A stretch of 64,000 nucleotides of DNA, from NCBI GenBank assembly GCA_965277455.1, contig OZ255823.1:2438250-2502249 (forward strand), in the 5' to 3' direction. A program made the translations under genes and the position numbers. Numbering within the stretch: the first letter of the stretch is position 1; each line of letters starts with the position of its first letter. The notes beneath the pieces were generated by a model. The model was not told the DNA's origin, searched no databases, and worked only from the letters and a program-made list of their open reading frames with translations. The stretch is from Capsulimonadaceae bacterium (GTDB taxonomy: Bacteria > Armatimonadota > Armatimonadia > Armatimonadales > Capsulimonadaceae). Positions 9,697 through 32,448 of the stretch are shown here, piece after piece.

Positions 9697-9705
9697 AGTA
9701 TAGCA
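9697..9705 (-). promoter_or_regulatory. Extended -10 promoter (TGCTATACT) for prepilin gene 8712..9569
   Basis: Plus-strand AGTATAGCA at 9697-9705, in an AT-richer intergenic stretch. Confidence 0.35.
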
Positions 9706-9783
9706 CAGTTTCCGCAGTTTATATAAAATTGAGTGCCAAAAAGGAACTTGATTCTTGCCAGCTTTGCCAGACTGTACGCAAGC

Positions 9784-9820
9784 AAAGGCCGCGCCGGGGT
9801 GTATTCCAGGTGCGGCCTTT
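9784..9820 (-). terminator. Weak hairpin after 9838..10644
   Basis: AAAGGCCGC...GCGGCCTTT with a large loop and no clean U-tract. Confidence 0.3.
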
Positions 9821-9837
9821 CTGGGTGGACGCTAAGC

Positions 9838-10644: not shown

Positions 10645-10739
10645 GAGGGTATTCCTTTCAGCACAGGTCATGCGGTGTGCTGATACTTGCATACCCGGTT
10701 CAGAAAGGAACATAAACGCACGGTTAGCGCAGAGTTAGA

Positions 10740-13931: not shown

Positions 13932-13952
13932 AGTGTAGTTTCTCCCCACGCC

Positions 13953-16278: not shown

Positions 16279-19200
16279 TTAATTGCCCGTCGGGATTTGA
16301 AGCGTCACGTCGGTATATACTCGTATCCAGTAGGCCGTCCAGGGCTGGAGTGTATCGGTGGGCGAGACCGGCTGGTAGGCCGTTCCGTCGTAGCGGTACA
16401 GCGTCGGCGAGATCAGGTGGAAGCTCGCGCCAGAGGCATCCGCGAAGCTGCGGGTGACACCGTCGCTGCCCACGAAGTTCAGACTGGAAACGGCAGTTCC
16501 CTTGATATTGGGCACGCCGATCTGGTTCCAGGCCGGATGCAGAGCGACGCTGACGATTCCAGTGGGCGTCGTGCCGGTCTGCGTCACCGCCGTCGAGTTT
16601 TTCAGGAACACCCAGTAGCCGACACCGAGGCGCGGGGCATCGGCGGGGGCGGTCGGGTCCAGCACGTAGCTGGAAGCGACGGGGTCCCACAAAGCGACGT
16701 GCGAGCGGTTGCCGGGCGTCGTGGCTGTGTTCAGCGTGCCAAACACGCCGTCGAAGCCAAGCGATGCGTAGTTGTACGGCAGGGACACGAACTGGAGACC
16801 TGCCGGGAACGTATGCACGGCGGGCAGGCCGGTGATGCCGCTGAAGTCCAGCCGGGTGAACGTGCTCGCCGTGACGGAGACCGTCTGCGGCGCGGTGGAG
16901 ACGCCGCCCCGGCTGGCGGTGACGGTGTAGGTCCCCTGAGCCAGCGTGATCGGGCCGTAGTTGAGCGTGCCGCCGTCGGGCGCGGTCACGGCAGTCGCCG
17001 TGGAAGTCGCCGTCTTGACTGCTCCGGTGCCGGAGTTGGTAACGGTGATGGTCGCGCCTGCCAGCGGGGAGGCCCCGGAGGTGGACAGGACGAGGCCGCC
17101 GAGTGTGCCGTTGGCAACAGCGCCCAGCACAAGGTCTGGGGCGACGACGGAGGTTCCGCCGACAGCCTGCACGGTGGCGACGGCATTGCCGAAGCCGGTG
17201 GCAGTGGCGGTCAGCGTGTAGCTGCCTGCCGGGACTGTCGCCGTATAGGTTCCATCCGACGCCGTGGTCGCGGTCATGGCGACCGTGGCGGGGCTGCCCG
17301 AGGTGAAGATGACCGAGGCATTGGCGATGCCAGTGCCGGAGGCATTGATGACCCGGCCTGTGACGACGCCGGTGGCGGCGCTCAGGACGAAATTCGCCGT
17401 TGACGCCGCGCTGGCGGTGATGGTGACGCTTTGGGGCGTCGATGCACCGTAGACGGGCGGGAAGCTGGCCGTGCCGCTGTACATCCCGGCGGGGATGGTC
17501 GGCAAGCTGTAGACTCCGTTGGCATTGGTCGTGGCGATCTGCGCGGTTCCGCCCCCGGCGGGGTTGAATGTGACGGTCGCCCCGGCGATCAGGTTGCCCG
17601 AGGCGTCCTTGACCGTGCCGCTCAGAGTTCCGGGCGCGGCAGGCGACAGCGTGAGGCTGGCGCTCTGCGTGGCATCGCCTTCGACGGTGAACGTGTTGGT
17701 CGTGTTGGACGTGGTCCGTGCGAAGCCGTTTTTGTAGGCCGCGACGGTGTAGGTTCCGGGTTCTACGCCGGTGATGGTATAGTTGCCGGTCGAGTCCGAC
17801 GTGGCGCTGAAGGTGCCGCGTCCGGGGATGGTGGTCCCGTTGGAGGACACAAGATAGACAGTCGCACCGCCGATGCCTGCGCCGGAGCTGCCGTTGCCGG
17901 AGGTGGAGCGGATGGTTCCGCTGACGGTTCCGGTCCGCAGGTAGCAGACGATGTTGTGCATCATATTCTGGCGCTGATTGTGCGGGAAGTAGAACCGTGT
18001 CGCCGGGTTGCCGATATCACGCGAGTAGTAGTCGGTCGAGATGCCCTCAAAGCCGAAGGAGGCGTAGACGACTTTTGCGCCTGTGCCGCCGGTGGCGGTG
18101 TCAGAGTAGTAAACCAGTCCGTTGCCGCCCGGCGAGTTAGCCGCACCGGGGTCGCCAATGGTGTTGCTTCCATAGACATTGTTGAACGGGTTCAGCACGA
18201 GGTCTGTGTGGGAGCTGGTTTTGGACGCTGCGATGGTGTCGATCTGGCTGACGACCGAGTTGCCCTGGCCGCCGCTGTTGGAGACGCCGAATGGAGTCGC
18301 ATACGGCCCGAGCTGATCGAGAGAGCCGTCGGTGCGCCAGAACGGAACCTGATCTTTGTGGAAGTAGGTGTCTCCAAAGACGTTGCCACCGATGTTGTTG
18401 CTGATCGTGATCGGATTTTGGAAGGGAGCAACGAAATCCTGACCATTGGCTGTATTGACCTGGAAGAAGTTCATCCGGGCCTGCCCGTCGAAGAAGGCGA
18501 CGTTGGAAATCCGGTTGTTTGCGGCGTCGCCGCCGCCGGTGGCATTGTGCGTGCCCTTGTTTCCAGTGACCAGAGTGGCCCCGAGGACATCTGAGAGGAA
18601 GCCTCCTGCCGCGTTGCCCGTGGTTCCGTTCTGCGTGATGGATGAGCCGACATCCTGGCCGGTCATAAACAGGCGTCCCCCTGCTTTGACGAAGGTGCGG
18701 AGCGAGGTCTGCGTGGCGGGGTCGGTGATGGTTCCCGGTCCGACAAGCAGGTCCCCGGCGAAGGGGGCGCTCCAGACGATGCAGCGAGGGGCAACTGTTA
18801 CCGCCGGTGCAGCAGGGAATGTGACGGCGGGCGTGACAGTGCTGTCCGAGACGGCGGGCTGCGGCGTGGTGGTCGGCTCGTAGCTCTGGAACAGCGAGTC
18901 AGGGACAGGGCCGCGTGACAGGGTGCGCCAGATGCTGTACCGCTGCGATTTGACTGCTGGGACACCGTCAACGGTCTGACCGTCGTCGATGTTGGCATCC
19001 GCGTAGGAGCCGACGCCGAGGCCATTGAGCTGGCTTGTTACTCCATAGCCCGATGCGCTCACGCCATCGCTGTCGTTGAGGGTAGCGAGCTGCACCGCCA
19101 GGGTGATCGGGAACTTGCGTCCGGCGATGACCCGTGACACATAGGTTGTGTTCGGCATCAGGCTGATGTCGATGTCGGTCAGATAGGACTCGGCCCCGTA

Positions 19201-22200
19201 GAACTTGGGAACGAGGTTGACCAGGCTGTTCTGGCCGCCGAACGTCGTGCCGGCGAACTTCTGGCCCAGGGCATAGTCGCTCACGAACAGAATGTCGTTC
19301 GTGCCGATGTCGCGCAGGGTGCTGAAGCCCCAGACGTTGTCGTAGATGCGGAAGTTGGAGCGCTCGCCGGAGAAAGGGGACGTGCCGCCCGCGAAATTCG
19401 GGAACACGGCCTTGTCATAAGCGATGACGTCCAGGTAGAAGTCGCTGCCCGAGGCAGGCGGGGTCCAGGTGACAGAATACAGAAGGCCGCCGCCGCCGTC
19501 CTGCTGGGCAGCAGGCAGGCGGGTGAGCTTGAGCCACTCGGCGGGGCGGAACACGGGGGTCGTGACCAAGATGCCTTTAGTGGTCGTGGTGGTGACGTTC
19601 GTGGTCGAGTTCACGGTCGGGCGCGGCGGGTGACCGTTGCCGAACGTGGACTGTGTGAGCGTTTGCGACTGGTCATTCACCTTCGTTCCGGGAATGAGCG
19701 TCACATCGTTGAGCGGTGTCGAGCCGCGCTCGTTGACGCTTGCGGTCTGAACGTTTGTGCCGTATCCAGGCAGCGTGGTCGTGACCCGGTACTGACCGGG
19801 GGCGAGGGTCACCGTGAAGTTGTTTCCATTGGCATCCGGTGTGGCGGAAGAGATGAGCGGCGAGGGCGTGGTTGCCACAGTGGCACCGGTGAAATAGTCG
19901 GTGATGGTGATGGTCGCACCGCCGACGGGATCGCTCCCACTTTTATCGGCTCTCTGAGCAGAGATCGTGCCGGTCAGGGTACCGGCGGCGGGGAAGCCGC
20001 TGAAGGCCCGCTGGTCGTCCACACCGGCCAGATAGTAGGGGTTGGTGTAGTCGGCTGGCGACGCATCGGTGACAGTCCCATTGGGGTTGTTGGCGTAGTC
20101 GGGGTTAAGCGCCTGTGCCTCATATTCCTGCCCGGAGGGGACGAAGAACTTGGGATCGAAGCCCTGCGGGATGTTCGGGTTGCCTTTGGCGTCCACCAGA
20201 GGCTTGCCGTTGTCGTCGGTAGTGATCGGGTTCTTGCTGTTCTGGTTGGCAACCGGGGTGATGCCGACGGAGATGGACTCGCCGCCTGTGTCGACCCCGG
20301 CAACCGCGCCCCGCTGTGCTTGGGGGCCGCCAAGATCATTGGTGAAGTAGTTGTACCCGGACGCATTCAGGCCGCCGTTGTAGAGCAGGCTGGAAGAGCC
20401 GCTGTCGGGGTTGTTCCGGTTCGGATTGTTGCCCTGAGTGGCGTAAGAGGGGTCATGCGTGAAGACTTTATGCTCCAGCCGCAGGGCATCCTGGTACTTG
20501 GAGTCAGGGTCTTTGATCTGAACATAGACGTTGTTGTCGTCTACGCCTGCTTCCCGGTCGCTCAGCCGGACGGTCATGGTCATGGGACGACCGCCTGTAA
20601 GGTTAGCCCGTGACTGCACGCCGTTCTGGTCAGCGATGTGGACGACTTCGCTGCCGCTGTAGGGCACGAGCGTCGGCGGGTCGAGGTTCAGCACCTGCGA
20701 CTCGAAGATGCCGGTGTAGTTCGCGCCGACAACGCCGCCGCCACCGAGCGGCTGGCCCTGGGGAACGGAAATGGCCGTCTCAGAGGGCCGGTTCGTGACC
20801 GGACTGTTGTAGGTGACGCTGCGGTTGGATGAATAGGCGATGCTGAACAGGGTCAGGCCGGGTGCCCATGTCGGGTACGCATCTTCGTACTGGCCGCCGA
20901 CCGAGGCCACCGCGTTATCGTCGGTGTTGAGCTTGACGGCACCGTTGTTTCCGGTCCCGTCTGTCTGAGCGCCTTCGGGGGTCAGCGTCTCGTTATAGAC
21001 GGCAGTGACCTGGTAGTAATATTCGACGCCGTTCGTGACCTGCGTGTCCGTGATGAACGTATTTTGCACGTTGGTCAGGAACGGCACATTGCCTTCCTGG
21101 CCGGACCCTTGAACGGTGCGGTAGATGTTGTAGTAGGACGGCGTGCCGTTCTGCGAGAAGAAATTCAAATTGACAGCGCCGTCGCTGCCGGTGACACTGT
21201 TCAGGATCGGCGCGATGCTGTTCTGATTGAAACCGTTCTGGAAGTAGCCGTTTGCACCCAGACCGCTGCTATCGGAAGCGTTCGGGCTGGACAGGATTTC
21301 GATGCCCTGGGCAATCGGGGGGTCACCGCCGTTTGCCTGGGGGGCAAAAGCGACGTTGATGTTTCCATTGAAATCGCTGAAAGTCTGGATGTCCACCACG
21401 ACGGCGGTGTTCTGGCCGACGACGGCGGCCTGGCTGACCAGCGGAGCATCCTGGCGCACGAAGGCGTTGGCGGGCGGCCCGGCGGTGTTGACGACGGTAA
21501 CAGGCTGCGGCTGCGAGGTGAAGCCGGGCGCGATGAACTGAACGGTATAGGCCCCGGTCGGGAGGCGAGCCAGGTAGTTCAGCGGCTTGGCGTCGCCGTT
21601 AGGAGCAGCGGGCGAGGACGTCGCTGTGGTGGTGCGCGTCAGGGCAACAACGGCAGCGCCCTGCTGCACTTCCACGAGCACGCCGCCGAGGGGCTGGGCG
21701 GAGACGGAGTTCGTGACAAGCCCGCCGAGGGTTCCGACGGCGGCTCCCGCTTGCAGAACGAAGTTCGTCGTGGTCGCTGCGCCAGCGGTGATGTTGACAA
21801 CCTGTGTCAGAGTCTGGTAATTGCCAGTCGGCTCTGCCGTGACGTAGTAGGAGCCGACGGGGAGGGTCAGGGAGTAGTTCCCGCCAGCAACAGTGGCAAA
21901 CGGGCCGGGGATATTCGCGCCAGGCGTTCCATTGGGTCCGACGGCAATCACGGTCAGTGGGATGTTAGAAAGCGGCGTGCCATTGGAAGACACCGTGCCC
22001 GTGGCGGTTCCGGTGGCCTGGGTCAGCGCGAAGTCCGCACGGACGACCGCGCCGCTGCTGACATTGAGCGTCCGGGACTGCGCCGGGTAGCCGGTCGCGG
22101 TTACGGTGATGGTGTACAGGCCCTGCGGAAGCTGCGTGTCGTAGTTGACGTTCGCGCCGCCGTTGGGGTCCGGGGTAGTCGGAGTGGTCGTCGTGAGCGG

Positions 22201-24162
22201 GTCGGGCGTCGTGGTGACGGCCTGCCCGGCCGAGTCGGTGATAGTGATTGTCGCTCCGGCCAGAGGAGTGTTGGTGGCGGAGTCGGTGACGACGCCGTCG
22301 AGGCGTCCCGGCGAGGTCTGCGCGATCTGAACGATATCAATGGGTATCGTATTCCCATTGGCATTGACAGTAAACAGACGCTTGCCGACGGCGGTGTTTT
22401 TGTTGTCGGACAGGTGCAGGCGCACAGTGTACTCGACGTCCGGCGTCAGGTTGGAGAACGCATAGTTGAAGGTGCCGTTGCGGTCGGTGTTGTAGATCGC
22501 AGGCGGGGCGGTCGGGTCGGTGACGGTGTTGGTGGCGACCGCCGGGGTGATGGTCTCCGCCGTGCCGCCGTTTGCGACGACGCCCGCTGTGGTGGCGTCC
22601 GAGGTGAACGTGTTCGCGCCATTCGAGACGGTCGGACCGCCCGCGTTGACCCGGTAAACCGGCGTGCTGGCGGCCAGGGGAGTGGTGGCGGCTTCATTGG
22701 AGCGGCCGGTCTCGCCGCTTGCATCCACGTTTCGCAGGACCTGAAGGTAATAAATGTCATGCGCGGAGGCGGGCGAGGAGCCGCGTGAGAAGGCCAGATA
22801 CTCTGCGCCCGGCGCGGGATTCAGGTAGGCATTGCGGTTCAGCGACGACCAGGCGGGGCCGTAGTTGTCGGTTCCGGCGGTCGTCAGCGGCTTGCCCGCA
22901 AGAGTGATGCTGCCGAAGGCATTGCTGCGTGCGCCGCCGCCAAGCAGGAACAGGCTGCGGTTGCTCCGGGGAGTGGCGGTCAGGGTCAAGGTCTGGTCGA
23001 GCCGTCCGCCGGGCTGCTGCCCGGTCTGGCTGATGGTGGTGGCAGTGGACGAGAACGCGATAAACTGGGCATCTGCCGAGTAGGCCGGGTCGGTGTCGTC
23101 GGCGGGGCCATCAGTGATTTTGGCAGGCAGGGACGGGTTGGACGGGTCCGAGCCGCCGGTTCCAGTGTACAGGTAGTACAGGTGGAAATGGCCGTTATAG
23201 GCGGTGTTGGAGCCGCCCGTGGTGAGTGCTGCGAAGACGATCTCATCGGGCCGTCCGGCAAAGGCGGGGCGTCCGACCTGCGAGAAGCCGGTTCCGCCTG
23301 CGCCGACCGCGAAGCCATCGTTACGGACGGTCAGCGAGGACGGGCCGTTTGCGGTGGTGTCGGAGACGTTCACCGTGGTCGGGCTGAACTGGATGCGGTA
23401 CAGGTTCTGGGTTCCGGGCGTCTGCGCGTCGGAGGTGAATGCGAGGTACTGGTTGTTGCCGCCACTGAGGGCCGGGAAGAACTCGCCTTTCATCGTGCCG
23501 GGGGCAGTTCCGCCAGCGCTCAGCCCGGTGCTGCTGGTGAGCTGAACCGCTGCGCCGCCATTGACGGGGATGGCCCAGATATGGAAGCGGCCATCAGCCT
23601 GAATGCCGCCGTTGATGGTCCGGTTGGAGGAAAAGACGATCATCGTCTCGTCCGCCGTCCAAACTGGGTTCAGGTTAGTCGCGGTCAGCGAAGCAAGCTG
23701 CCCGGTCGGGGGCGCAAACGCAGGCGCGGGGTTGTTGACGTCAAACGTCTGCACCGCTTCGTTGACCAGCGGCGTGCCGGCGGCGGCGCTGGGGCGCAGG
23801 AGAGCGCCGGAAAGTCGGCGCACGGCGGCCTGCTGCGCCGCGTTCTGGCCGGTCAGCGAGGGCCGGTCATAGATATAGCGGCCATCGCTGCCCCGGCGCG
23901 GGCCGGAGGTGGCTTTGACGGTGGCAGGAAAAGCCACCCGGACGGCAGACAGGGCCAGCGCCTGCCCCAGCCCATGATGGATGGGTGCGGGCGACGCGCC
24001 GAGCAGACCTGCGGCCAGAGCCACAGTCGCCGCCGCAGCGGTGCCGGTCAGGGCGGGCTTGACGGTGCTGGACTTAAAGGCGCTGGACTTAAAGGCGCTG
24101 GATTTGAAGGCGCGGAAAGAAGACAGGGCGGCACGCAAAGATAGGGGACGTAGTGCTTTCAA
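16279..24162 (-). CDS. Giant secreted multidomain protein B (2,627 aa): PD40 propeller, malectin-like domain, CarboxypepD_reg-like repeats, Fn3-like domain, unnamed ~1,000-aa core, conserved C-terminal module
   Basis: TTG start (24160-24162) with GAGAGG 10 nt upstream. Hydrophobic leader TAAAATVALAAGLLGA. PD40 repeats: VWTADETMIVFSSNR, DGPADDTDPAYSADAQFIAFSS. Malectin-like segment YRVNAGGPTV...FNYAFSNLTPDVEYTVRLHLSD...GKRLFTVNANG. About 8 repeats of the type GTLSGTVKDASGNLIAGATVTF...NGVYSL..IPAGMY. It is a paralogue of 24414..32195. Confidence 0.75.
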   Translation of the reverse strand: MKALRPLSLRAALSSFRAFKSSAFKSSAFKSSTVKPALTGTAAAATVALAAGLLGASPAPIHHGLGQALALSAVRVAFPATVKATSGPRRGSDGRYIYDRPSLTGQNAAQQAAVRRLSGALLRPSAAAGTPLVNEAVQTFDVNNPAPAFAPPTGQLASLTATNLNPVWTADETMIVFSSNRTINGGIQADGRFHIWAIPVNGGAAVQLTSSTGLSAGGTAPGTMKGEFFPALSGGNNQYLAFTSDAQTPGTQNLYRIQFSPTTVNVSDTTANGPSSLTVRNDGFAVGAGGTGFSQVGRPAFAGRPDEIVFAALTTGGSNTAYNGHFHLYYLYTGTGGSDPSNPSLPAKITDGPADDTDPAYSADAQFIAFSSTATTISQTGQQPGGRLDQTLTLTATPRSNRSLFLLGGGARSNAFGSITLAGKPLTTAGTDNYGPAWSSLNRNAYLNPAPGAEYLAFSRGSSPASAHDIYYLQVLRNVDASGETGRSNEAATTPLAASTPVYRVNAGGPTVSNGANTFTSDATTAGVVANGGTAETITPAVATNTVTDPTAPPAIYNTDRNGTFNYAFSNLTPDVEYTVRLHLSDNKNTAVGKRLFTVNANGNTIPIDIVQIAQTSPGRLDGVVTDSATNTPLAGATITITDSAGQAVTTTPDPLTTTTPTTPDPNGGANVNYDTQLPQGLYTITVTATGYPAQSRTLNVSSGAVVRADFALTQATGTATGTVSSNGTPLSNIPLTVIAVGPNGTPGANIPGPFATVAGGNYSLTLPVGSYYVTAEPTGNYQTLTQVVNITAGAATTTNFVLQAGAAVGTLGGLVTNSVSAQPLGGVLVEVQQGAAVVALTRTTTATSSPAAPNGDAKPLNYLARLPTGAYTVQFIAPGFTSQPQPVTVVNTAGPPANAFVRQDAPLVSQAAVVGQNTAVVVDIQTFSDFNGNINVAFAPQANGGDPPIAQGIEILSSPNASDSSGLGANGYFQNGFNQNSIAPILNSVTGSDGAVNLNFFSQNGTPSYYNIYRTVQGSGQEGNVPFLTNVQNTFITDTQVTNGVEYYYQVTAVYNETLTPEGAQTDGTGNNGAVKLNTDDNAVASVGGQYEDAYPTWAPGLTLFSIAYSSNRSVTYNSPVTNRPSETAISVPQGQPLGGGGVVGANYTGIFESQVLNLDPPTLVPYSGSEVVHIADQNGVQSRANLTGGRPMTMTVRLSDREAGVDDNNVYVQIKDPDSKYQDALRLEHKVFTHDPSYATQGNNPNRNNPDSGSSSLLYNGGLNASGYNYFTNDLGGPQAQRGAVAGVDTGGESISVGITPVANQNSKNPITTDDNGKPLVDAKGNPNIPQGFDPKFFVPSGQEYEAQALNPDYANNPNGTVTDASPADYTNPYYLAGVDDQRAFSGFPAAGTLTGTISAQRADKSGSDPVGGATITITDYFTGATVATTPSPLISSATPDANGNNFTVTLAPGQYRVTTTLPGYGTNVQTASVNERGSTPLNDVTLIPGTKVNDQSQTLTQSTFGNGHPPRPTVNSTTNVTTTTTKGILVTTPVFRPAEWLKLTRLPAAQQDGGGGLLYSVTWTPPASGSDFYLDVIAYDKAVFPNFAGGTSPFSGERSNFRIYDNVWGFSTLRDIGTNDILFVSDYALGQKFAGTTFGGQNSLVNLVPKFYGAESYLTDIDISLMPNTTYVSRVIAGRKFPITLAVQLATLNDSDGVSASGYGVTSQLNGLGVGSYADANIDDGQTVDGVPAVKSQRYSIWRTLSRGPVPDSLFQSYEPTTTPQPAVSDSTVTPAVTFPAAPAVTVAPRCIVWSAPFAGDLLVGPGTITDPATQTSLRTFVKAGGRLFMTGQDVGSSITQNGTTGNAAGGFLSDVLGATLVTGNKGTHNATGGGDAANNRISNVAFFDGQARMNFFQVNTANGQDFVAPFQNPITISNNIGGNVFGDTYFHKDQVPFWRTDGSLDQLGPYATPFGVSNSGGQGNSVVSQIDTIAASKTSSHTDLVLNPFNNVYGSNTIGDPGAANSPGGNGLVYYSDTATGGTGAKVVYASFGFEGISTDYYSRDIGNPATRFYFPHNQRQNMMHNIVCYLRTGTVSGTIRSTSGNGSSGAGIGGATVYLVSSNGTTIPGRGTFSATSDSTGNYTITGVEPGTYTVAAYKNGFARTTSNTTNTFTVEGDATQSASLTLSPAAPGTLSGTVKDASGNLIAGATVTFNPAGGGTAQIATTNANGVYSLPTIPAGMYSGTASFPPVYGASTPQSVTITASAASTANFVLSAATGVVTGRVINASGTGIANASVIFTSGSPATVAMTATTASDGTYTATVPAGSYTLTATATGFGNAVATVQAVGGTSVVAPDLVLGAVANGTLGGLVLSTSGASPLAGATITVTNSGTGAVKTATSTATAVTAPDGGTLNYGPITLAQGTYTVTASRGGVSTAPQTVSVTASTFTRLDFSGITGLPAVHTFPAGLQFVSLPYNYASLGFDGVFGTLNTATTPGNRSHVALWDPVASSYVLDPTAPADAPRLGVGYWVFLKNSTAVTQTGTTPTGIVSVALHPAWNQIGVPNIKGTAVSSLNFVGSDGVTRSFADASGASFHLISPTLYRYDGTAYQPVSPTDTLQPWTAYWIRVYTDVTLQIPTGN
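24064..24123 (-). repeat. 15-bp tandem repeat encoding (AFKSS)3 in the leader of giant B
   Basis: Plus strand GGTGCTGGACTTAAAGGCGCTGGACTTAAAGGCGCTGGATTTGAAGGCGCGG. Protein SSFRAFKSSAFKSSAFKSST. Confidence 0.85.
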
Positions 24163-24301
24163 GCGGATTGAACCTCTCGGATTGGGGACACCCGGCCCGG
24201 ACGAAACTGTCCGAACGGGCGGCAGGAGATCATTCGATGATGCGGCGTGGTCACAGAACTAGAAAATAGACAAATCGGTGGGACGATGTCCCGGCTTGAC
24301 G

Positions 24302-24330
24302 ATTATAACATAGCGCTGGTTTTTACGCAA
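24302..24330 (-). promoter_or_regulatory. Sigma70-type promoter of giant B
   Basis: On the minus strand: TTGCGT, 17-nt spacer, TATAAT (ATTATA at 24302-24307, ACGCAA at 24325-24330). Flanking bases resemble the giant A promoter (GATTATAACA.AGC). Predicted leader about 130 nt. Confidence 0.55.
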
Positions 24331-24344
24331 GCGGTTTTTTCGTG

Positions 24345-24408
24345 AAAAAGAAAAAAGGGGACAAAACGGCGGAAGCGAAGGTCGCTTCCGCCGTTTTTGG
24401 CTGTCCCC
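24345..24408 (-). terminator. Intrinsic terminator after giant A
   Basis: Minus strand GGGGACA..AAAACGGCGGAAGCGA-loop-TCGCTTCCGCCGTTTTGTCCCC, followed by TTTTTTCTTTTT. Confidence 0.8.
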
Positions 24409-24413
24409 TCGGG

Positions 24414-27400
24414 CTACGGCACTGTGGGCAGGCCGGTCCCCGTCGCGGGCGTGGTCGGTGTCACCGTCGTGCTGGTCCCCGTCGGGATTTCCAGCGTGGC
24501 AGGCACGCGGACCCGGAGCCAGTAGGCTGTCCACGGGCTGAGGACCGCGCTGTCGCTGACCGGCTGGTACGTGTTGCTTGCGCTGTCGTACCGGTAGATG
24601 TTCGTGACACCCGGCGTCAGGATCGCGTACTGCGAGGTGGACGCGGCGGCATAGGTGATCTTTCCACCCGCACCGTTGTCAAACATCAGGCTGGACACCG
24701 GCACGCCGCTCGGGTTAGGAACGCCGATCATGTTCCAGGTCGGGTTCAGCGGCTGAGGCACGAAGCCGCCGGGCGCGTTGGTTCCCTGCTGCGTGACGGG
24801 CACGGCGTTCTTCAGGAAGACCCAGTAGCCCTGGCCGAGACGAACTGTGTCGGCAGGGGCGGTCGGGTCCAGCTTGTAGACGGCGGCGACGGGGTCCCAC
24901 ACCGCGACATGGGAGCGGTTGCCGTTCGGGTCCGAGCCGCCTGCCGACGAGTTGAGCGTTCCGAGGAGGCCGTCGAAGCCAAGCCCACTGTAGTCGTAGG
25001 GCGTCGAGAAGAACTGAAGTCCTGCCTGGAACACATACAGCGCGGGCAGGCCGTTCGTGGCTCCTGCAAAGTCAACCCGCGTGAACACGCCGCCTTTAAC
25101 GACGACCGTCTGAGGCGTGGACTTGCGGGTCCCTTTCGTGACGGTCACGGTGTAGGTTCCGCTGATGACCTGACCCGTGTAGTTCAGAGCCTTGCCGTCT
25201 GGTCCGGTCGAGGCGGCAGTGCTGGTCGTATAGGACGCCACGACGGTTCCGGCGGAGTTCATGACATTGACCGTTGCGCCGCCCACCGGAGTGGTGCTGC
25301 CCGCAACGGCGTCCGTGACGAGGCCGCCGATGGTTCCGATGCTGCTGGTCAGCGAGAGGTCGACTCGCTTTGGCAGGGCGTTGGTGACTGTGAAGGCCGC
25401 AGAGATCGACTGCGTAAAATTGGCCTTCGTCGCGGTCAGCGTGTACGTGCCGGGCGGCAGGCTGAACGTGTAGTTCTGGAGCGCCCCGTCCAGTCCGGCG
25501 CTGGTGCTCGTGCCGGTGGTGATGATAGTCGGCGTCGTGGTTACCGCCGTGCCGCCCGCATTGGCAACAGTCAGCGTGACGCCTGAGAGCGGCGCACCGG
25601 TCACGCTGTCTGTGATCAGGCCATAGACCGTGGCTTTTTCGTTCAGCACCAGCGCCACAGGGGTGTTGGTGTCGCCCAGCTCGACCGCCGCCGAGTTGAC
25701 CCCGTCAAAGAACCCGGCAGCCGTCGCGGTGAGGGTGTAGGTTCCGGGCGCGAGGCCCGGCGAGGTGTAGACACCTGCGACGTTCGCGGTTACGATGGTG
25801 GACGCGCCGCCCGCCGCCGGGGTGATGGTCACCGTGGCATTGGTGATTGGTGCACCGCCGGCGGCATCGGTCACCGTCACGGCAAAGGTCGGCAGGATTT
25901 GCGTGAGCGTGAAGTTGGCAGTCGCCGTGGTGTTGGGCGAGACCGTCACCGTCTGAGCAGGGGGCGAAGTGTATTCGGGGTTGCCATTGGTGTTGCTTGG
26001 CCCGACGACCATGCCGCTGTAGTTTCCGGCAGGAACGCTGCCCATCGGGATTGCATACGCACCCTTGCCGTCGGTGACCGCCATGCGTGTAGTAGTTCCA
26101 TCCGTAGAGGTAAACGTCACGGTTGCACCGGGGACTACCGCTTTAAGGTTGTCAAAGACGGTTCCGCTGATTGTGCCGGGCAGGAGCTTCGGCAGGGCAA
26201 AGTCTCCATACGCGATGGTATCACCGTTGTAAAAGGTGATTTGCGTGCTTTTGCTGCCCGGTGTGAATGGGTCAATAAACGGGGTGGACTGGTAGCCTGC
26301 TTTTGACGCGATAATGGTATAGGTTCCACCGTCTACCAGAGGAAGGGTCGCTGGCGAGTATACGCCGTTAGCTCCGGTGAGCGCCGTTCCAATCATTTTG
26401 CCCGTGGTGACATCGGTAACGGTGACCAGTGCATTTTGCAGCTTCACGCCGGTTGCGGCATCGAACACGGTTCCCTGAACGGTCGGCGGGATCAGGGTCA
26501 GCGTGAAGTTCTGCGTTAAGGGCGTACCGGGCGTCACAGTGACGTTGACCGCCGCTGTACGGGCCGCCGTCACGCTGCCGTGCTTGTTGGTCTTGCCGAC
26601 GGCGGTGGCCGAGTAGGTCCCGGCGGGTGCGGCGGCAATGTTGTAATTGCCGTTTGCATCCGTCGTGGCCGTCAGCGGCGTGGTGCTGCCGGGGGGCGTG
26701 AAGGTGACGATGGCATTGGCAACCGGTGTTGTGCCGCCGCTATAAATCACCTTGCCGTTGATCGAACCGGGCAGGATGGCGGTCAGGGCCTTGTCCTGAC
26801 CGGTAATCACATCGCCGAGGAACAGCGACAGGGTGAAGTTCTGCGAGGTGAAGCCGGGCGCACTGGCGACGAGTACGATGCGCGTCGCTGTGCCGGGGAA
26901 GGCGGCTACCGGCAGAATGCCCTTCAGGGTATAGGTTCCATCTGCGCCGATAGGCGTGGTAGCAAGCGCAGAGCCGGTCGTCGTGGTGCCATCGGTGGTG
27001 GCGAATGCCTGCACCGCGCCGCCTGCGACTAAGGCTCCGCCTGCGGCGTTGTCAGTCGGGCCGCTGTAAATGCGGCCAGAGACAGTGGCCCCGATCTGGG
27101 TCAGGGTAAAGGTAACACCGCCCGCCTTCGTGCCGTCGCCGGTGGTGACACCGGACTGAACGACGATGCTGGTATCAAACGGCGCATTGGCTTTCGACGC
27201 CGAGATGTACTGCGCCGTTCCCTGATTGTTGAGCGGGCCGGTGGCCGTGGCGACGGTGTAGGTAGTCACGGGCACGCTGGAGAACAGGAAGCCGCCCTTC
27301 GTTTGACCGGCCTGCGTTCCATCGAAGGTCGTGGTGGTACGTGTGACCGTGTTATCCTGCGATGTGACCGTAACGGTCGCGCCGGGAATTGTCGCTCCGG

Positions 27401-30400
27401 TGTTGTCCACGACGATGCCCGCGATGTTGCCCGGCGGGACCGGGTTAATGGTCAGCGTAGCGTTGGCGGCGGTGGTGTCGCCTTCCACGGTGAACGAGAC
27501 GTTGCTGTTGGAGACGGCGCGGGTGTAGCCGTTCTTGTAGGCGATGACGCGGTACGTGCCCGGCTCGACGCCGCTGATAACGAAGTCGCCAGACTGCGAG
27601 GTCGTCGCGCTGAAGACCGCCCGAGACGGAGGCGTCTGGCCGTTGATATCCTGCACATAGACGGTTGCGCCGGGAACGCCCGAGTTTGCGTTCTGCCCGT
27701 TGCCAGCCGCCGTCTGCGTGATTTTGCCGGTGATGAAGCCGCTACGCAGGTAGGAAACGATGTTGTGAATGACCGCCGAGCGGACGTTGCGCGGAATAAT
27801 TTCCGGCACAAACAGGTCATAGGCCGGGTTCTGCGATGGGTTAGGCGCGTCGGAACTGTAGTAGTCCTGCGACAGTGCGCCGAGGTTGAAACCGGCATAG
27901 ACTGTCCGGCTGCCCGTGCCGCCGTTCGGAAGCTGGGGCGCGGCCCCATTGGCGGGCTGGACGTAAGGATCGCTGTGAAAGACCAGCGCATTGCCGCCGT
28001 TGTCATATGTCGCGCCGACAATCGCCCCGTTCAAGGGGGTGATTACGTCGGGTTGTCCCTGAATACTAGCCCCGGTTGGCAGACGGTTAGCCGGGATTTC
28101 GTCAAAGGCCCCGTCATTCTGGTCCGTGCTGGTCAGCCGGAGGCGGTCCTGGAAGGGGAACACGCCGTTGATAATCTGGAAGCCGCTGCCGAAGCCGCCA
28201 GCCATGCTCAGATACTGAACACCGCCGTTGTTAAAGCCGCCGAGTGACCCGTCAAACAGGGCGTTGCCGAAGATGCGGTTGTTGGTGCCATTCAGCGTGG
28301 TCGTTCCCGTCTGGGCGGGGTTGAACGAGGCATTCAGAACGTCCGGCAGGAAGCCGCCGGGCGTATTGCCGGAAACCCCGGCAAGTGTCAGCGTGGAGCC
28401 GACATCCTGGCCGGTGATGCAGAGGCGTCCGCCGTTCGACACGAAGGAGCGGAGTGCCTGCTGCGTGCGGACGCGGTTGTTGACGTTGGGAACGCCGGTC
28501 AGGTCCAGGTCATCAAGCGTACCGGGGTCGACCAGCAGGCTGCCCGTGTAGGGAGCCAGCCAGATGATGCAGCGGTGCGCGTCCAGCACAAGCTGGGCAG
28601 GTACGGTTCCGGCCCCGCCGGTAGCAGGGTCGACAACGACAGGCTGCTGGGTCAAGGTAGGCTGGTAGGACTGAAGCAGTGTATCGGGCACGGGGCCACG
28701 AGACAGGATGCGCCAGATCGTGTATTTCTGCGAGTTGACGAACGGAACACTCACAGAAGTGCCCGTAATCGGGTCTGCAAATGTGTTGCGTCCGCCGTCG
28801 TCAATAACCCCATCGTAGTAAGAGCCAACCCCGAGGCCGTTCTCGTGGCGTATTCCGCCAGGATTCATAGAAAACGTGCTTCCAAGCTGGGTCCGGGTTC
28901 CTGATCCCAGGAAGGGGTTCAGAATGGGGAAGAAGTTGTAGCTCGTCGGCGAGTCGGGAGCGCCAGCGTAGACACGGTCGGGCAGGATGCTGACATCCAC
29001 GTCTGTCAGGTAGGACTCAGTCCCAAATTGCTTGGGGATCAGGTTCTGGTTGGTGTTCTGCCCGCCAAAGGTGGTGGCGGCGAACTTCTGGCCGAGGGCG
29101 TAGTCGGAAACGACCAGAATATCGTTGTTGGGCAGCGTCTGCTGCGTGCTGAAACCGCCGACGTTATCGTAGATGCGGAAGTTGAACTTCTGACCGTCGT
29201 AGGTGGAAGTCCCTGCGGGCAGGGTCGGGAAGACGGCCTTGTCGTAGGCGATGACGTCCAGATAGAAGTCGCTGGGCGAGGCGGGCGTCTTCCAGGTGAC
29301 GGTGTAAAGAACGCCGCCCTTGTTATCCTGCAAGGCTTGCGGGACACGCACCATTTGCAGGTACTCGGCAGGGGCGGTGACGTTGCCGTTGGCATCCATC
29401 GTGTTCGCGGTCGGGCGGGGCGGGCGTGTCTGGCCACTGAATGCCTGCTGGTCATCCACACCGGCGAGGTAGAACGGCGAGCGGTAGTCGGTGATCACTG
29501 TATCCGTGCCATTGCCGCCGCCCGTGGCGTACTGCGGGTTGACAAACTGGGCCTCATATTCGGCACTGAACGGGACGAATCGGGCCGGGTTGCCGCCGAC
29601 ACTAGCGGCGGCAATCGGGTTCGGGTTATTGCCGCCGCCCGTCTTGCCGACAAAGATGAGCGCATCATCCGGGTTGTTGCCGTTAGGAAAGCCATAATGG
29701 CCGCCGTGCGAGCCGCGCTGGGTCACGCGCTGGGCGATGCCGGGCGTCCCCTGATCCGGCGTGCCATAGGACGGGTACGTGTACTGGTTGACTGATTGGC
29801 TGCTTCCGTTCCCAAAGCCTTCATAGAGACCGAAGCCAAGTCCGAAGTTTCCAACTCTGCCGTCTGCGGTTCCGGTGGTGTTGGCTTCGGAGACAGGCTG
29901 GTTAGCCTGGCCGATGAACTGCCGGTCGCGGGAGAAGACCTTGTGCTCAAAGCCCTGGGCATCCTGATATTTGGAGTCCGGGTCTTTGATTTGCAGATAC
30001 ACTTTGGGGCTGTTGACACCCGCGACGGCATTAGGGTTAGTCGCTGCTGCGCCGGTGTCGTCGATGTTCGCTTCGCGGTTGGACAGGCGTACCGTAATGG
30101 TGATGTTCTGGCTGCCGGTGACGGCCAGCTTATTGGACGTGCCGTTGACCGGGTTCAGCGACTGGCCGTTGGCATCCACGGCTCCGGCGGCCTGGATGTG
30201 AAGCACCTGGTCCGGTGCAAAGCGCAGCAGGGTCGGCGGGTCGAGGTTCAGCACCTGCGACTGGAAGAGGCCCGAATAGTTCGCGCCGACGGTGTAAAAT
30301 TGGTTGTTTGGGTCGGACGTATTGGCCGTGCCGCCCTGCGGGATAGAAATGGCGACTTCAGACGGGTTGGCAGTCGTCGGGTCGTTATAGGTGACGCTGC

Positions 30401-32195
30401 GCCCGCCGGCAATAGTGCCTGCGGCCAGCGTACCGTCGGCGCTCAGGCTGTATGTGCCGGAGGTCAGTGCGCCATTGGTGAAGTTGCCGGTCTGGTAGGC
30501 GATGCTGAACACGGATAGGAACGGCGACCAGGTCGGGTACACGTTGTCATAGACATTGCCCGTGTCATCGGTGTTGAGCTTGACCACAGTGTTAGTCGTC
30601 GCGCCAACTGCTGTGCCCTCGGCAAGCACCGTATCCGGGTTTGCGGATGTGCTGGCGGTACGCACGGTTTGCAGGTAGTAGATGTCATGCGCGGCGGCCT
30701 GACTCGCACCACGGGCGAAGGCGAGGTACTGGAAGCCAGGGGCAGGGTTGATATACTGGTTGCGGGCAGACAGCGTGATATAGCTCCAGGCTGGGCCGAA
30801 GTTGTCGGTTCCCGCCGCCGTGACACGTCCATTGCCATTGGCATTGCCTGCAAGCGCGTTCGGCACGACGCCGAAGCCCGAGGCCGTGCCGCTGCCACCG
30901 CCGCTGATCAGGAACAGGGAGCGCAGGCTGTTGACGGTCGTGCCAGCGGCCGCAGTCGTCAGCGACTGGGACTGGTTTGGGTCCTGCATGGCGGTGGGCG
31001 GATTCGGGCCAAAGCTGTTGCTGGGGTTGTTCGAAACGCCATTGGCCGTGGAGGCGAACGCAATAAACTGGCCGTCCTGCGACCACGCGGGGTCGGTATC
31101 GTCGGCGGGGCCATCGGTCAGCTTGCCGGGAAACGAAAAATTGTTGTTCGGGTCAAAGCCGAGGCTGTTGGTATACAGGAAATACAGGTGGTAGTGTCCA
31201 CCATTCGTGCCGGAGTTGGGAAAGCCGATGGTGGAAAAAGCTGAAAACACGACGAGACCGTCGTTGCCAGGCGAGAAAGTGGGCCGCTGAACGTTGCCGA
31301 AGCCAGTCTGAGATGAGCTGATGGTCTGATTCGGGTCGCGGAGTGTCACCGAAGTGATACCGTTCAGCCGGGGGTTTGACTGGGAAACATCCAGTAGGTA
31401 GGGCGGATTTGTCGTGCTTAACTGGGCATTGTTATAGGCCACCAGAGCATTGAACGAGAAGCCGCCGGCGGAGGTGGTTCCCGCGACGCTGGCTCCGAGC
31501 ACGAACAGGTTGCGCGTGCCGGGCGACTGCCCATCGGACACGAAGGCCAGCTTGCTGTTGTTGGCGGACAGGGCCGGGAAGAACTCGCCCCGGATATTGG
31601 GGTCGGTATTGGAGTCGCCGGTGATCTGGTAGGCTTCGCCGCCGGAGGCGGGAATCGCCCACAAATGGAACCGGCCATCGGGCTGGACGCCGCCCCGGAC
31701 GGTGCGGTTGGACGAGAAGACGATAAACGTCTGGTCGGCGGACCACACCGGGGTCAGGTTGGTGGGGGTCAGGTTGTTGATGAACACCGCCGAGTTGGTC
31801 GAGTCGTTGTTCAGGTTGGTAGGGGTTCCATAACCAATCAGCGGCTCAAACGCGGGAAGCGGGTTGCCGATGTCGAACGTCTGCGTGGCGTTCGGGATGG
31901 GCACGGTATTGGCGGTGGTGGCGGCGTTGGCACGCTGCAGCGCCCCGGACCGAAGCAGGCTGTGGTCAATCAGCGTGCGTCCGTTAGGCAGGTTGCGGTA
32001 GCCCGTTCGGGACGCATTGGCGGGGCCAGCGGCCTTGATAGGGGCGGCACTCAGCAGCGAGCGCAGAGTCAGTGCATCGCCGATGCTGGCCTGTGCCTGC
32101 GGCATGAGGCCAGCCAGGAGCGACAGGAGCAGCAGGGTGAAAATCAGGAAACGGGACGGGCGCGAAGCGCCGCAAGCAGTGCGTTTTGCGTTCAA
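24414..32195 (-). CDS. Giant secreted multidomain protein A (~2,593 aa): PD40 propeller, unnamed ~1,000-aa core, ~9 CarboxypepD_reg-like repeats, conserved C-terminal module
   Basis: Track ORF runs to 32384. I place the start at TTG 32193-32195 because GGGAGG lies 11 nt upstream, the context matches the giant B start, and a signal peptide follows immediately (RPSRFLIFTLLLLSLLAGLMPQAQA). Core motifs shared with giant B: LNLDPPTL, QIKDPDSKYQDA, FYLDVIAYDKAVFP, SDYALGQKFA, GGRLCITGQDVGS. Confidence 0.75.
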   Translation of the reverse strand: MNAKRTACGASRPSRFLIFTLLLLSLLAGLMPQAQASIGDALTLRSLLSAAPIKAAGPANASRTGYRNLPNGRTLIDHSLLRSGALQRANAATTANTVPIPNATQTFDIGNPLPAFEPLIGYGTPTNLNNDSTNSAVFINNLTPTNLTPVWSADQTFIVFSSNRTVRGGVQPDGRFHLWAIPASGGEAYQITGDSNTDPNIRGEFFPALSANNSKLAFVSDGQSPGTRNLFVLGASVAGTTSAGGFSFNALVAYNNAQLSTTNPPYLLDVSQSNPRLNGITSVTLRDPNQTISSSQTGFGNVQRPTFSPGNDGLVVFSAFSTIGFPNSGTNGGHYHLYFLYTNSLGFDPNNNFSFPGKLTDGPADDTDPAWSQDGQFIAFASTANGVSNNPSNSFGPNPPTAMQDPNQSQSLTTAAAGTTVNSLRSLFLISGGGSGTASGFGVVPNALAGNANGNGRVTAAGTDNFGPAWSYITLSARNQYINPAPGFQYLAFARGASQAAAHDIYYLQTVRTASTSANPDTVLAEGTAVGATTNTVVKLNTDDTGNVYDNVYPTWSPFLSVFSIAYQTGNFTNGALTSGTYSLSADGTLAAGTIAGGRSVTYNDPTTANPSEVAISIPQGGTANTSDPNNQFYTVGANYSGLFQSQVLNLDPPTLLRFAPDQVLHIQAAGAVDANGQSLNPVNGTSNKLAVTGSQNITITVRLSNREANIDDTGAAATNPNAVAGVNSPKVYLQIKDPDSKYQDAQGFEHKVFSRDRQFIGQANQPVSEANTTGTADGRVGNFGLGFGLYEGFGNGSSQSVNQYTYPSYGTPDQGTPGIAQRVTQRGSHGGHYGFPNGNNPDDALIFVGKTGGGNNPNPIAAASVGGNPARFVPFSAEYEAQFVNPQYATGGGNGTDTVITDYRSPFYLAGVDDQQAFSGQTRPPRPTANTMDANGNVTAPAEYLQMVRVPQALQDNKGGVLYTVTWKTPASPSDFYLDVIAYDKAVFPTLPAGTSTYDGQKFNFRIYDNVGGFSTQQTLPNNDILVVSDYALGQKFAATTFGGQNTNQNLIPKQFGTESYLTDVDVSILPDRVYAGAPDSPTSYNFFPILNPFLGSGTRTQLGSTFSMNPGGIRHENGLGVGSYYDGVIDDGGRNTFADPITGTSVSVPFVNSQKYTIWRILSRGPVPDTLLQSYQPTLTQQPVVVDPATGGAGTVPAQLVLDAHRCIIWLAPYTGSLLVDPGTLDDLDLTGVPNVNNRVRTQQALRSFVSNGGRLCITGQDVGSTLTLAGVSGNTPGGFLPDVLNASFNPAQTGTTTLNGTNNRIFGNALFDGSLGGFNNGGVQYLSMAGGFGSGFQIINGVFPFQDRLRLTSTDQNDGAFDEIPANRLPTGASIQGQPDVITPLNGAIVGATYDNGGNALVFHSDPYVQPANGAAPQLPNGGTGSRTVYAGFNLGALSQDYYSSDAPNPSQNPAYDLFVPEIIPRNVRSAVIHNIVSYLRSGFITGKITQTAAGNGQNANSGVPGATVYVQDINGQTPPSRAVFSATTSQSGDFVISGVEPGTYRVIAYKNGYTRAVSNSNVSFTVEGDTTAANATLTINPVPPGNIAGIVVDNTGATIPGATVTVTSQDNTVTRTTTTFDGTQAGQTKGGFLFSSVPVTTYTVATATGPLNNQGTAQYISASKANAPFDTSIVVQSGVTTGDGTKAGGVTFTLTQIGATVSGRIYSGPTDNAAGGALVAGGAVQAFATTDGTTTTGSALATTPIGADGTYTLKGILPVAAFPGTATRIVLVASAPGFTSQNFTLSLFLGDVITGQDKALTAILPGSINGKVIYSGGTTPVANAIVTFTPPGSTTPLTATTDANGNYNIAAAPAGTYSATAVGKTNKHGSVTAARTAAVNVTVTPGTPLTQNFTLTLIPPTVQGTVFDAATGVKLQNALVTVTDVTTGKMIGTALTGANGVYSPATLPLVDGGTYTIIASKAGYQSTPFIDPFTPGSKSTQITFYNGDTIAYGDFALPKLLPGTISGTVFDNLKAVVPGATVTFTSTDGTTTRMAVTDGKGAYAIPMGSVPAGNYSGMVVGPSNTNGNPEYTSPPAQTVTVSPNTTATANFTLTQILPTFAVTVTDAAGGAPITNATVTITPAAGGASTIVTANVAGVYTSPGLAPGTYTLTATAAGFFDGVNSAAVELGDTNTPVALVLNEKATVYGLITDSVTGAPLSGVTLTVANAGGTAVTTTPTIITTGTSTSAGLDGALQNYTFSLPPGTYTLTATKANFTQSISAAFTVTNALPKRVDLSLTSSIGTIGGLVTDAVAGSTTPVGGATVNVMNSAGTVVASYTTSTAASTGPDGKALNYTGQVISGTYTVTVTKGTRKSTPQTVVVKGGVFTRVDFAGATNGLPALYVFQAGLQFFSTPYDYSGLGFDGLLGTLNSSAGGSDPNGNRSHVAVWDPVAAVYKLDPTAPADTVRLGQGYWVFLKNAVPVTQQGTNAPGGFVPQPLNPTWNMIGVPNPSGVPVSSLMFDNGAGGKITYAAASTSQYAILTPGVTNIYRYDSASNTYQPVSDSAVLSPWTAYWLRVRVPATLEIPTGTSTTVTPTTPATGTGLPTVP

Positions 32196-32419
32196 GACGG
32201 ATACAACCTCCCTGGTTGTGCGCGGCTCTCGGGGGGAGCGGCCAAGAAACGATGCGTTGAAAAACGATACAGTGAAGCGCGGTGAATGGATACTCACGAA
32301 AAAGCTCTCTTTGAAAAGGACGGTTAATGTCAACGGGCAGCCGAAACGGTGCCGGGCACGAAGCAAGTATTGGGGGGTAAACAATGCAATTTTGTGGCCC
32401 TGAAACTAAGGGATGAGTG

Positions 32420-32448
32420 ATTATAACACAGCCCCCGAAGTTTGGCAA
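32420..32448 (-). promoter_or_regulatory. Sigma70-type promoter of giant A
   Basis: On the minus strand: TTGCCA, 17-nt spacer, TATAAT (plus-strand ATTATA at 32420-32425, TGGCAA at 32443-32448). This predicts a leader of roughly 215 nt. Confidence 0.55.

Follow-up and report, generated by a model that had tools for sequence, protein, structure and literature searches.

S-layer genes typically pair very strong promoters with long stabilising 5′ untranslated regions (5′UTRs), and the sap and eag genes of Bacillus anthracis are a precedent for tandem, separately promoted S-layer paralogues. The anammox Kustd1514 family (NF052345) comprises acidic, Thr/Ser-rich, almost Cys-free secreted proteins with Ig-like arrays; in curli secretion, a CsgG-family protein is encoded beside its cargo. 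Soil, lichens and hot springs are common habitats of the Armatimonadota, a widespread phylum of which very few members are in culture and whose envelope is essentially unexplored. Here, we analyse a 64,000-nucleotide stretch from a Capsulimonadaceae bacterium (contig OZ255823.1; hereafter the window), in which two neighbouring paralogous genes, U and D, encode secreted proteins of about 2,600 residues (the giants). We describe their anatomy, the fold class of their core, their phylogeny and synteny and the conservation of their expression signals, and put them forward as candidate structural proteins of a cell-surface coat.

The locus shares features with each of these systems and departs from all of them. 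The giants have the acidity, composition, secretion and Ig-like arrays of the Kustd1514 family; their genes combine a strong promoter, a long 5′UTR and, in the case of U only, a strong terminator, as S-layer genes do, and stand as adjacent paralogues with separate promoters, as sap and eag do. S-layer proteins self-assemble into a two-dimensional lattice, which for the giants would be a prediction, and to our knowledge a propeller joined to a head of the class I glutamine amidotransferase-like (GATase1-like) fold has no counterpart in known S-layer proteins. The N-terminal region shares PD40 repeats with TolB-type propellers but lacks the TolB N-terminal domain, and the genes lack a tol–pal context; relatives are publicly named ‘Tol biopolymer transport system component’, a mis-annotation that goes back to the shared domain. 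A CsgG-like protein is encoded beside the presumed cargo, as in curli systems. Unlike curli CsgG, however, it has no lipobox cysteine and carries an extra transmembrane helix and a long tail of low complexity. Families of curli subunits or accessory proteins are absent among the neighbours, and the cargo presumed here is folded and of 270 kDa, not an unfolded amyloid subunit.

An earlier reading of this DNA, made from its letters and open reading frames (ORFs) and here called the sequence-only reading, had pointed to two adjacent minus-strand paralogous ORFs; the ORF list and BLASTP bear this out, and every shared motif it quoted is found in both U and D. The two genes are intact, and both translations begin with a signal peptide. 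The longest ORF for U (24414..32384, minus strand) opens too early. The TTG at 32195 is its real start: a GGGAGG stands before it, and translation from it opens with a canonical signal peptide, LLLLSLLAGLMPQAQA, cut before S (with flank, MNAKRTACGASRPSRFLIFTLLLLSLLAGLMPQAQA, cleavage, then SIGD); U is therefore 2,593 residues long. Both giants have a mass of ~267-269 kDa and an isoelectric point of 5.1, and are composed of 13% Thr, 11% Gly, 11% Ala, 8% Ser, 7% Asn and 1.5% Lys, with 2-3 Cys. The n-region of the D signal peptide (window ~24060-24110, D residues 17-32) holds three tandem copies of the five-residue repeat AFKSS; the D orthologue of the related locus L005 has SRGFK three times at this place, and that of L024 has fewer copies.

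The giants share a common architecture (Table 1). Pfam recognises CarboxypepD_reg (E ~1e-60, seven passing stretches in each) and PD40 in both, and BLASTP aligns them in four blocks: the propeller (D 65-482 with U 38-517, 43% identity, E 4e-81), the first half of the core (D ~1048-1389 with U 506-921, 37%, E 4e-58), the second half of the core with the repeats (D 1495-2430 with U 913-1883, 37%, E 3e-140) and the C-terminal part (D 2075-2623 with U 2004-2570, 40%, E 2e-84). D differs from U in three respects. Its propeller region carries an insert of a malectin domain, three CarboxypepD_reg repeats and an Fn3-like stretch, with Malectin matched by Pfam at E 4.5e-7 in D only, not in U, and PEGA as well as CarboxypepD_reg matching within the insert; its core holds one more repeat; and its C-terminal repeats number about 4 as against ~10 in U, the latter count being an estimate from region length. 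The closest-matching part of the two proteins is formed by the C-terminal ~185 residues (57% identity). A hidden Markov model (HMM) of this module scores ~200 bits in each giant and matched no other ORF of the window; the module has no Pfam match (E ≤ 10) and no PDB sequence match. Pfam, BLASTP and the module HMM thus uphold the paralogy, the common architecture, the CarboxypepD_reg arrays and the shared C-terminal module that had been proposed from the sequence.

Table 1. Features of the giant locus and its downstream neighbours, in window coordinates (aa, amino acids; CDS, coding sequence; TSS, transcription start site)
Feature	Position	Strand	Details
Giant U CDS (‘Giant A’ of the sequence-only reading)	24414..32195	-	2,593 aa, TTG start
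U promoter	32420..32448	-	TTGCCA-17-TGTTATAAT, TG-extended TATAAT; 11/12 + TG in promoter scan; identical in L005 and L024
U 5′UTR	32196..32413	-	~218 nt; ends GGGAGG-11 nt-TTG; TSS inferred ~7 nt past -10
U PD40 beta-propeller region	30336..32084	-	aa 38-620; Pfam PD40 E 1.4e-15; aligns with D aa 65-482, 43% identity
U core	27726..30275	-	aa 641-1490; split beta-sandwich, low-complexity insert, predicted GATase1-like/GIFT-like alpha/beta platform
U CarboxypepD_reg (transthyretin-like) array	25071..27725	-	aa 1491-2375; PF13620 E 2.2e-60, seven stretches pass
U C-terminal module	24501..25070	-	aa 2376-2565, then short Thr/Pro tail; 57% identical to D module
U intrinsic terminator	24355..24410	-	dG -41.6 kcal/mol, z -7.5
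Giant D CDS	16279..24162	-	2,627 aa, TTG start after GAGAGG
D promoter	24302..24330	-	TTGCGT-17-TGTTATAAT, TG-extended TATAAT; from sequence, kept in relatives
D 5′UTR	24163..24295	-	~133 nt; 5′-proximal hairpin, GAGAGG-11 nt-TTG
D-only insert in propeller region	21493..22659	-	malectin aa 502-610 and three CarboxypepD_reg repeats aa 623-890
D core	17902..20715	-	aa 1150-2087; as U core, with one additional CarboxypepD_reg-like repeat (aa ~1395-1490)
D four C-terminal CarboxypepD_reg repeats	16849..17901	-	aa 2088-2438; Pfam, BLASTP
D C-terminal module	16282..16848	-	aa 2439-2627; U-D comparison, module HMM
CsgG-like membrane protein	13953..16226	-	757 aa, GTG start, signal peptide, one transmembrane helix, Asn/Thr-rich tail
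p340	12927..13949	-	340 aa, signal peptide, one transmembrane helix, His/Gly/Thr tail; E 3e-5 against CsgG-like domain
Big_1-bearing envelope protein	10740..12845	-	701 aa, signal peptide, Big_1/Invasin_D3, ~570 unannotated C-terminal residues

The core of both giants, by single-sequence and profile searches, matches nothing in Pfam (E ≤ 10), NCBIfam or the PDB. The only near-matches to the core or the C-terminal module are not significant (9zau, E 0.32; DUF4374, 9gar, E 0.023), and the PDB profile search gave nothing below E 0.3. We modelled U residues 641-1490 with AlphaFold 2 from 51 diverse relatives, having discarded a model from a 14-sequence alignment (predicted local distance difference test, pLDDT, 45). 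The retained model has a mean pLDDT of 74, with 279 residues above 90, and a predicted template modelling (TM) score of 0.85. It consists of a beta-sandwich whose halves (core residues ~15-114 and ~299-376) are split by a ~190-residue low-complexity insert, a small beta subdomain, and a large alpha/beta domain with several inserts (core residues ~386-843, U ~1026-1483). The best Foldseek match to this model in the PDB is STM3548 (2gk3; E 2.4e-3, probability 0.99, TM score 0.47-0.50 on the target), along with STM1381 (3soz; probability 0.93, TM score 0.49), 8ibt (probability 0.93) and 5fms (probability 0.90). Among the top matches are a beta-galactosidase of glycoside hydrolase family 42 (GH42), the Ignavibacterium beta-1,2-glucosyltransferase, the N-terminal (GIFT) domain of IFT52, GH164 mannosidases, SpuA, true glutamine amidotransferases (3m3p, 2d7j) and OST48; the ranking is coherent. 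We take all the top matches to share the class I glutamine amidotransferase-like fold, and the model accordingly suggests, at fold level and through a weak match, that the core holds a GATase1-like/GIFT-like alpha/beta platform. The sequence-only reading had noted a faint likeness to a GATase1/ThuA-like platform; the GATase1 part is supported by the model and its Foldseek ranking, whereas ThuA (PF06283) has no Pfam match at E ≤ 10 and no ThuA-described entry stands among the 50 best Foldseek matches.

The predicted platform seems to belong with the non-catalytic members of its fold. None of the two or three cysteines per giant is conserved, and Cys1259 of U aligns with a Phe in D. The inferred nucleophile elbow, placed from the order of secondary-structure elements and not by structural superposition, follows the strand RL(C/F)IT and presents an invariant Gly (G622, core numbering) and then Q-D. 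A catalytic class I glutamine amidotransferase of the PF00117 type is excluded because no cysteine is conserved; the Cys-His-Glu triad is absent, and no family HMM matches. With this, the suggestion that the giants might be surface enzymes fails for the amidotransferase type. The platform instead resembles, in the model, STM3548 and STM1381, the GH42 trimerisation domain and the GIFT domains of IFT52, GldG and OST48, which are alike in fold and in which, as in the core, the catalytic Cys is missing; the top Foldseek matches to these non-catalytic platforms have probabilities of 0.90-0.99. A sugar-binding role has been put forward for GIFT domains (PMC7226087). The core differs from these platforms (PF07090, PF08532, PF09822) in having no sequence-profile relationship detectable by Pfam at E ≤ 10 or by the PDB profile search, in a domain about twice the usual size owing to long inserts, and in the fusion of that domain to a split beta-sandwich inside a 2,600-residue secreted protein.

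An exhaustive HMM search over 1.84 billion cluster representatives recovered at least 563 representatives at E ≤ 1e-3, of which 242 reach E ≤ 1e-30, nearly all of 1,800-2,600 residues and with the core at residues ~500-1,500. In an alignment of 104 of them, propeller, core, repeats and C-terminal module follow one another just as they do in U and D; the closest full-length representatives are P0022 for D (76% identical) and P0024 for U (68% identical). A word-index protein search, with 16 relatives for the giants and 8 for the C-terminal module, badly under-represents the family. Public gene calls cut the giants into 2-4 pieces (L001, L002, L004), probably through frameshifts in long-read assemblies, and the family is therefore hidden from such a search (16 relatives as against 563). 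A scan of one genome per species yielded 65 loci, all but two contigs bearing Armatimonadota labels (Capsulimonadaceae, Armatimonadales, Armatimonas, Chthonomonadales); since it used two family-specific peptide patterns, the narrow phylum range is partly expected. The two exceptions, L009 and L031 (JBPBQB01 contigs), come from a metagenome-assembled genome (MAG) that is labelled Janthinobacterium lividum and carries an Armatimonadota-type cluster, probably by mis-binning. Apart from this probably mis-binned one, every genome in which the giant family has been seen to date carries an Armatimonadota label. Judging by MAG matches at genus level, the cultured Capsulimonas corticalis and Armatimonas rosea probably have family members as well. 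The best locus match to the window is a Capsulimonadaceae MAG at 81% identity. A giant gene is present in every sampled order, taking up 8-16 kb of a 4-6 Mb genome.

Conservation is distributed unevenly along the protein. Expressed in bits per residue across 101 full-length relatives, it is highest in the beta-sandwich (0.66 in the second half, 0.47 in the first), followed by the C-terminal module (0.34), the GATase1-like platform (0.24) and the propeller (0.11), and lowest of all in the repeat stalk (0.06). In a neighbour-joining tree of the platform region, U-type and D-type proteins form sister clades with orthologues from the same ~20 genomes in each, and single-copy lineages branch outside both, distant lineages carrying one giant. 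The topology therefore points to one old duplication, probably in an ancestor of the Capsulimonadaceae-like group, that has been kept since. The sequence-only reading had considered that the core might prove to be a known family and the pair a lineage-specific copy of a common adhesin. The duplication is indeed lineage-specific and the pair is conserved in the ~20 genomes, whereas the core matches no characterised family and the duplicated protein is an uncharacterised, phylum-wide one. Our search of the literature on Armatimonadota surface layers and proteomics, Capsulimonas, Chthonomonas, and PD40 with CarboxypepD_reg found no paper on these proteins.

The expression signals of the giants are conserved far beyond the window. 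The sequence-only reading had assigned each gene a TATAAT promoter with a 17-nt spacer and a TTG start, and U a strong terminator; all of these were confirmed and are conserved in related genomes. The promoter scan overlooked the D promoter, whose -35 element matches at only 3/6 positions, and conservation recovered it: TTGCG(T/C)AA-N-TG(T/A)TATAAT occurs in 21/21 U-D intergenic regions examined, with the spacer between hexamers varying freely. In 32/36 loci across the family, an extended -10 promoter of this kind stands 100-550 nt ahead of the start codon, so that a long 5′UTR is a family trait. The last 90 nt of the U leader do not vary in L005 and L024, and its middle carries indels. In the D leader, the 5′ hairpin GGGAC..GTCCC has become GGGGC..GCCCC in relatives, a compensatory change. 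No Rfam family matches the D 5′UTR, and Rfam and tRNA scans of the window were empty. The 3′ two-thirds of the D 5′UTR, with a block that reads ATCATCGAATGATCTCCTGCCGCCCG..CGGACAGTTTCGTCCGGGC..GGGTGTCCCC, are nearly invariant in three genomes (the window, L005 and L024) whose proteins are more than 20% different. This 5′UTR may act as a regulatory or stabilising leader.

Translation of the giants begins at TTG in 59/63 predicted N-termini across the phylum, a few of which are mis-picked as spurious upstream extensions or internal sites, and GGAGG always precedes it at the unusually long spacing of 11 nt. The TTG context of D is kept in 15/16 D orthologues, and the 32 neighbouring called genes comprise 29 with ATG, 2 with GTG (both the CsgG-like gene) and a single one with TTG, a giant. 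Such deep conservation of a weak start suggests translational tuning.

The terminator after U was missed by the rule of the terminator scan and recovered by direct folding; it is kept in both L005 and L024, where L024 has a compensatory change from G-C to A-T. As a transcription unit, U is monocistronic and closed. Folding found no terminator after D (z +0.8), and only 52 nt, with an AGGAGG, lie between the stop codon of D and the GTG that opens the CsgG-like gene. Because of this missing terminator and the short gap with its ribosome-binding site, D most likely heads an operon. The proposal that each giant is a separate transcription unit therefore stands for U and fails for D, which has its own promoter and probably runs on into the CsgG-like gene.

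The window reads, in gene order, dnaB (with an intein), purD, a 463-aa ORF, a family 4 glycosyltransferase (GT4) gene, a GFO/IDH/MocA oxidoreductase gene, a major facilitator superfamily (MFS) transporter gene, U and D; after D come the CsgG-like gene, p340, the Big_1/Invasin_D3 protein gene and DUF1559 pilin-like genes. The GT4, oxidoreductase and transporter genes lie directly upstream of U, and the order from GT4 through U-D is found in ~20 genomes. Downstream of the giant, almost all loci with enough sequence, those of Armatimonas and Chthonomonadales among them, have a CsgG-like homologue next; p340 is syntenic in ~18 loci and the Big_1 protein in ~20, and the arrangement that runs from the giant through the CsgG-like gene and p340 to the Big_1 protein is shared by different orders. 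PF03783 is precomputed for 3/11 close relatives of the CsgG-like protein. Its GTG start (16224-16226) is also seen in two related genomes (L001 16410; L003 5450). The low-complexity tails contain long poly-Asn/Thr runs in the CsgG-like protein and HHHH-G8-T11 in p340. The C-terminal part of the 701-aa Big_1 protein might, as a guess, be a beta-barrel.

Taken together, these features lead us to a tentative reading of the giants as the principal structural component of a coat on the cell surface, S-layer-like or fibrillar, that would be assembled by neighbouring gene products, and not as enzymes. The rigid, highly conserved split beta-sandwich packed on a non-catalytic GATase-like (GIFT-like) platform would form a head, following the N-terminal PD40 propeller; the variable transthyretin-like CarboxypepD_reg repeats would form a stalk, with the conserved beta-rich C-terminal module after it. 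The giants would be exported via Sec and placed or anchored by the products of the downstream genes, that is, the two CsgG-like membrane proteins and the Big_1 envelope protein, perhaps an outer-membrane barrel. We envision the platform as an oligomerisation or glycan-binding node rather than an enzyme, and the C-terminal module as the part that a common machinery would recognise. The coat is probably glycosylated, and the upstream GT4 and oxidoreductase genes would supply the glycosylation. For each gene, expression would combine a strong extended -10 promoter, a long structured 5′UTR, a strong Shine-Dalgarno (SD) site and a deliberately weak TTG start. The Thr/Ser/Asn-rich, Lys-poor and Cys-poor composition, together with the pairing of promoter, UTR and terminator and the precedent of tandem S-layer paralogues, fits a surface coat; from such features we infer surface location, coat formation and the roles of the neighbours, and from the promoter, UTR and terminator the abundance of the giants.

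Several observations weigh against this reading. Pfam finds no known S-layer anchor such as the S-layer homology (SLH) domain in the giants, and the anammox S-layer family NF052345 matches them at 53 and 27 bits against a cut-off of 1,400, through Ig-like repeats only. The fold statistics are weak, with no Foldseek match at E ≤ 1e-3 and TM scores no better than those given above. The core contains invariant polar residues (E420/S421, R522, W572, D391, Q396/K397), which are unusual in a structural protein and might belong to an active or a binding site. The giants show no stronger codon bias than their neighbours (effective number of codons, ENC, 38-39 as against 35-49), a measure that was uninformative as a proxy for expression, and a weak TTG start is not expected of a maximally expressed gene. 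Finally, the CsgG annotation of the neighbour is marginal (Pfam CsgG, 23 bits against a cut-off of 20.8), and that protein has no lipobox after its signal peptide.

A more far-reaching proposal, which we regard as doubtful, is that of an undescribed phylum-specific envelope system, in which the head-on-stalk giant, delivered and anchored by a ring of CsgG-like proteins and by the Big_1 protein, would make up a new surface layer and the TTG start with its 11-nt SD spacing would act as a throttle. By slowing the entry of ribosomes on a very stable and strongly transcribed mRNA of 8 kb, such a throttle would keep a 270-kDa protein from jamming its own co-translational export. The domain types used as building blocks are known, as are giant envelope proteins rich in repeats. 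The ~850-aa core, the C-terminal module, the link to CsgG-like genes and the phylum-wide TTG/SD/promoter cassette appear to be undescribed, as far as our literature search reached.

The invariant acidic, polar and aromatic cluster of the core, along with the malectin domain of D, could also be explained if the giants were surface-displayed carbohydrate-binding or carbohydrate-processing proteins, with the head serving as a lectin or a new glycan-active site on a stalk and acting on capsule, plant or lichen glycans. Many Foldseek neighbours are, in keeping with this, GH accessory domains (GH42, GH164, the glucosyltransferase 7vl3) or GIFT domains. In GH structures, however, the GATase1-like domain is not the catalytic one; no Pfam or NCBIfam catalytic-domain model matches anywhere in the 2,600 residues, the amidotransferase triad is absent, malectin is missing from U and from most relatives, and an enzyme would not obviously need a phylum-wide tie to CsgG-like and envelope-protein genes. 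We consider this explanation unlikely.

Variable stalks bear on another account, which we judge improbable, namely that the giants are adhesins or biofilm-matrix fibres that are exported via a CsgG-like channel and form no regular coat. Adhesins typically have stalks of Ig-like or transthyretin-like repeats whose copy number varies, and capsules and aggregates are formed by Capsulimonadaceae; in the cluster itself, the CsgG-like protein is reminiscent of the curli channel, and a Big_1 protein of intimin/invasin type is present. Adhesins are, however, usually strain-variable accessory genes, whereas the giants occupy a fixed syntenic site near dnaB/purD in one or two copies throughout the phylum, with invariant expression signals. 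Equivalents of CsgA, CsgB, CsgE and CsgF are lacking among the neighbours, and folded 270-kDa proteins cannot pass a curli-type pore.

That the giants are periplasm-spanning tethers, with a TolB-like propeller binding peptidoglycan or a Pal-like partner and a stalk reaching the outer membrane so as to stabilise an unusual diderm envelope, is very unlikely: the propeller is of PD40/TolB type, the neighbours include membrane proteins with periplasmic CsgG-like domains, and the periplasmic plugs of outer-membrane proteins often contain CarboxypepD_reg domains, but TolB itself (TIGR02800) is rejected at 20 and 23 bits against a cut-off of 343, the 8-10 extended Ig-like domains and a 1,500-residue head are by estimate far longer than the periplasm is wide, the composition is typical of exposed glycoproteins, and malectin points to an external ligand. 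Tricorn protease, type IX secretion system cargo, RTX/type I secretion system adhesin and inverse autotransporter were also tried as identities and rejected, each lacking a supporting defining domain, score or neighbour gene.

That all orders sampled have a giant, at a fixed chromosomal site and with unchanged neighbours and expression signals, makes it likely to be a defining structural component of the lineage. The giants are without a family model at present, and appear in public databases as ‘TolB component’, as ‘carboxypeptidase regulatory-like domain protein’ or as fragments. With the family and its ~850-aa core defined, annotators can build a model for it and structural biologists have a compact, well-predicted target; for microbiologists, the giants are a concrete candidate for a surface layer or capsule scaffold and a lead on the Armatimonadota envelope. 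The TTG start, kept over phylum-level divergence, offers a clean natural case for asking why weak start codons persist.

Further features of the window lie outside the cluster. DnaB (39633-41711, minus strand) is interrupted by an intein with both N- and C-terminal splicing motifs, and its orthologue in L004 also has an intein, with a LAGLIDADG domain. Downstream of the cluster are two DUF1559 prepilin-type (N_methyl) proteins (8712-9992 and 9838-10713, minus strand); the 8712-9992 ORF is over-extended, its methylation motif standing at residue 153, and the overlap between the two is only apparent. The 463-aa ORF between purD and GT4 (36904-38295, minus strand) has no Pfam or NCBIfam match, and its GC content at third codon positions (GC3, 0.68) is lower, and its ENC (48.8) higher, than those of its neighbours.

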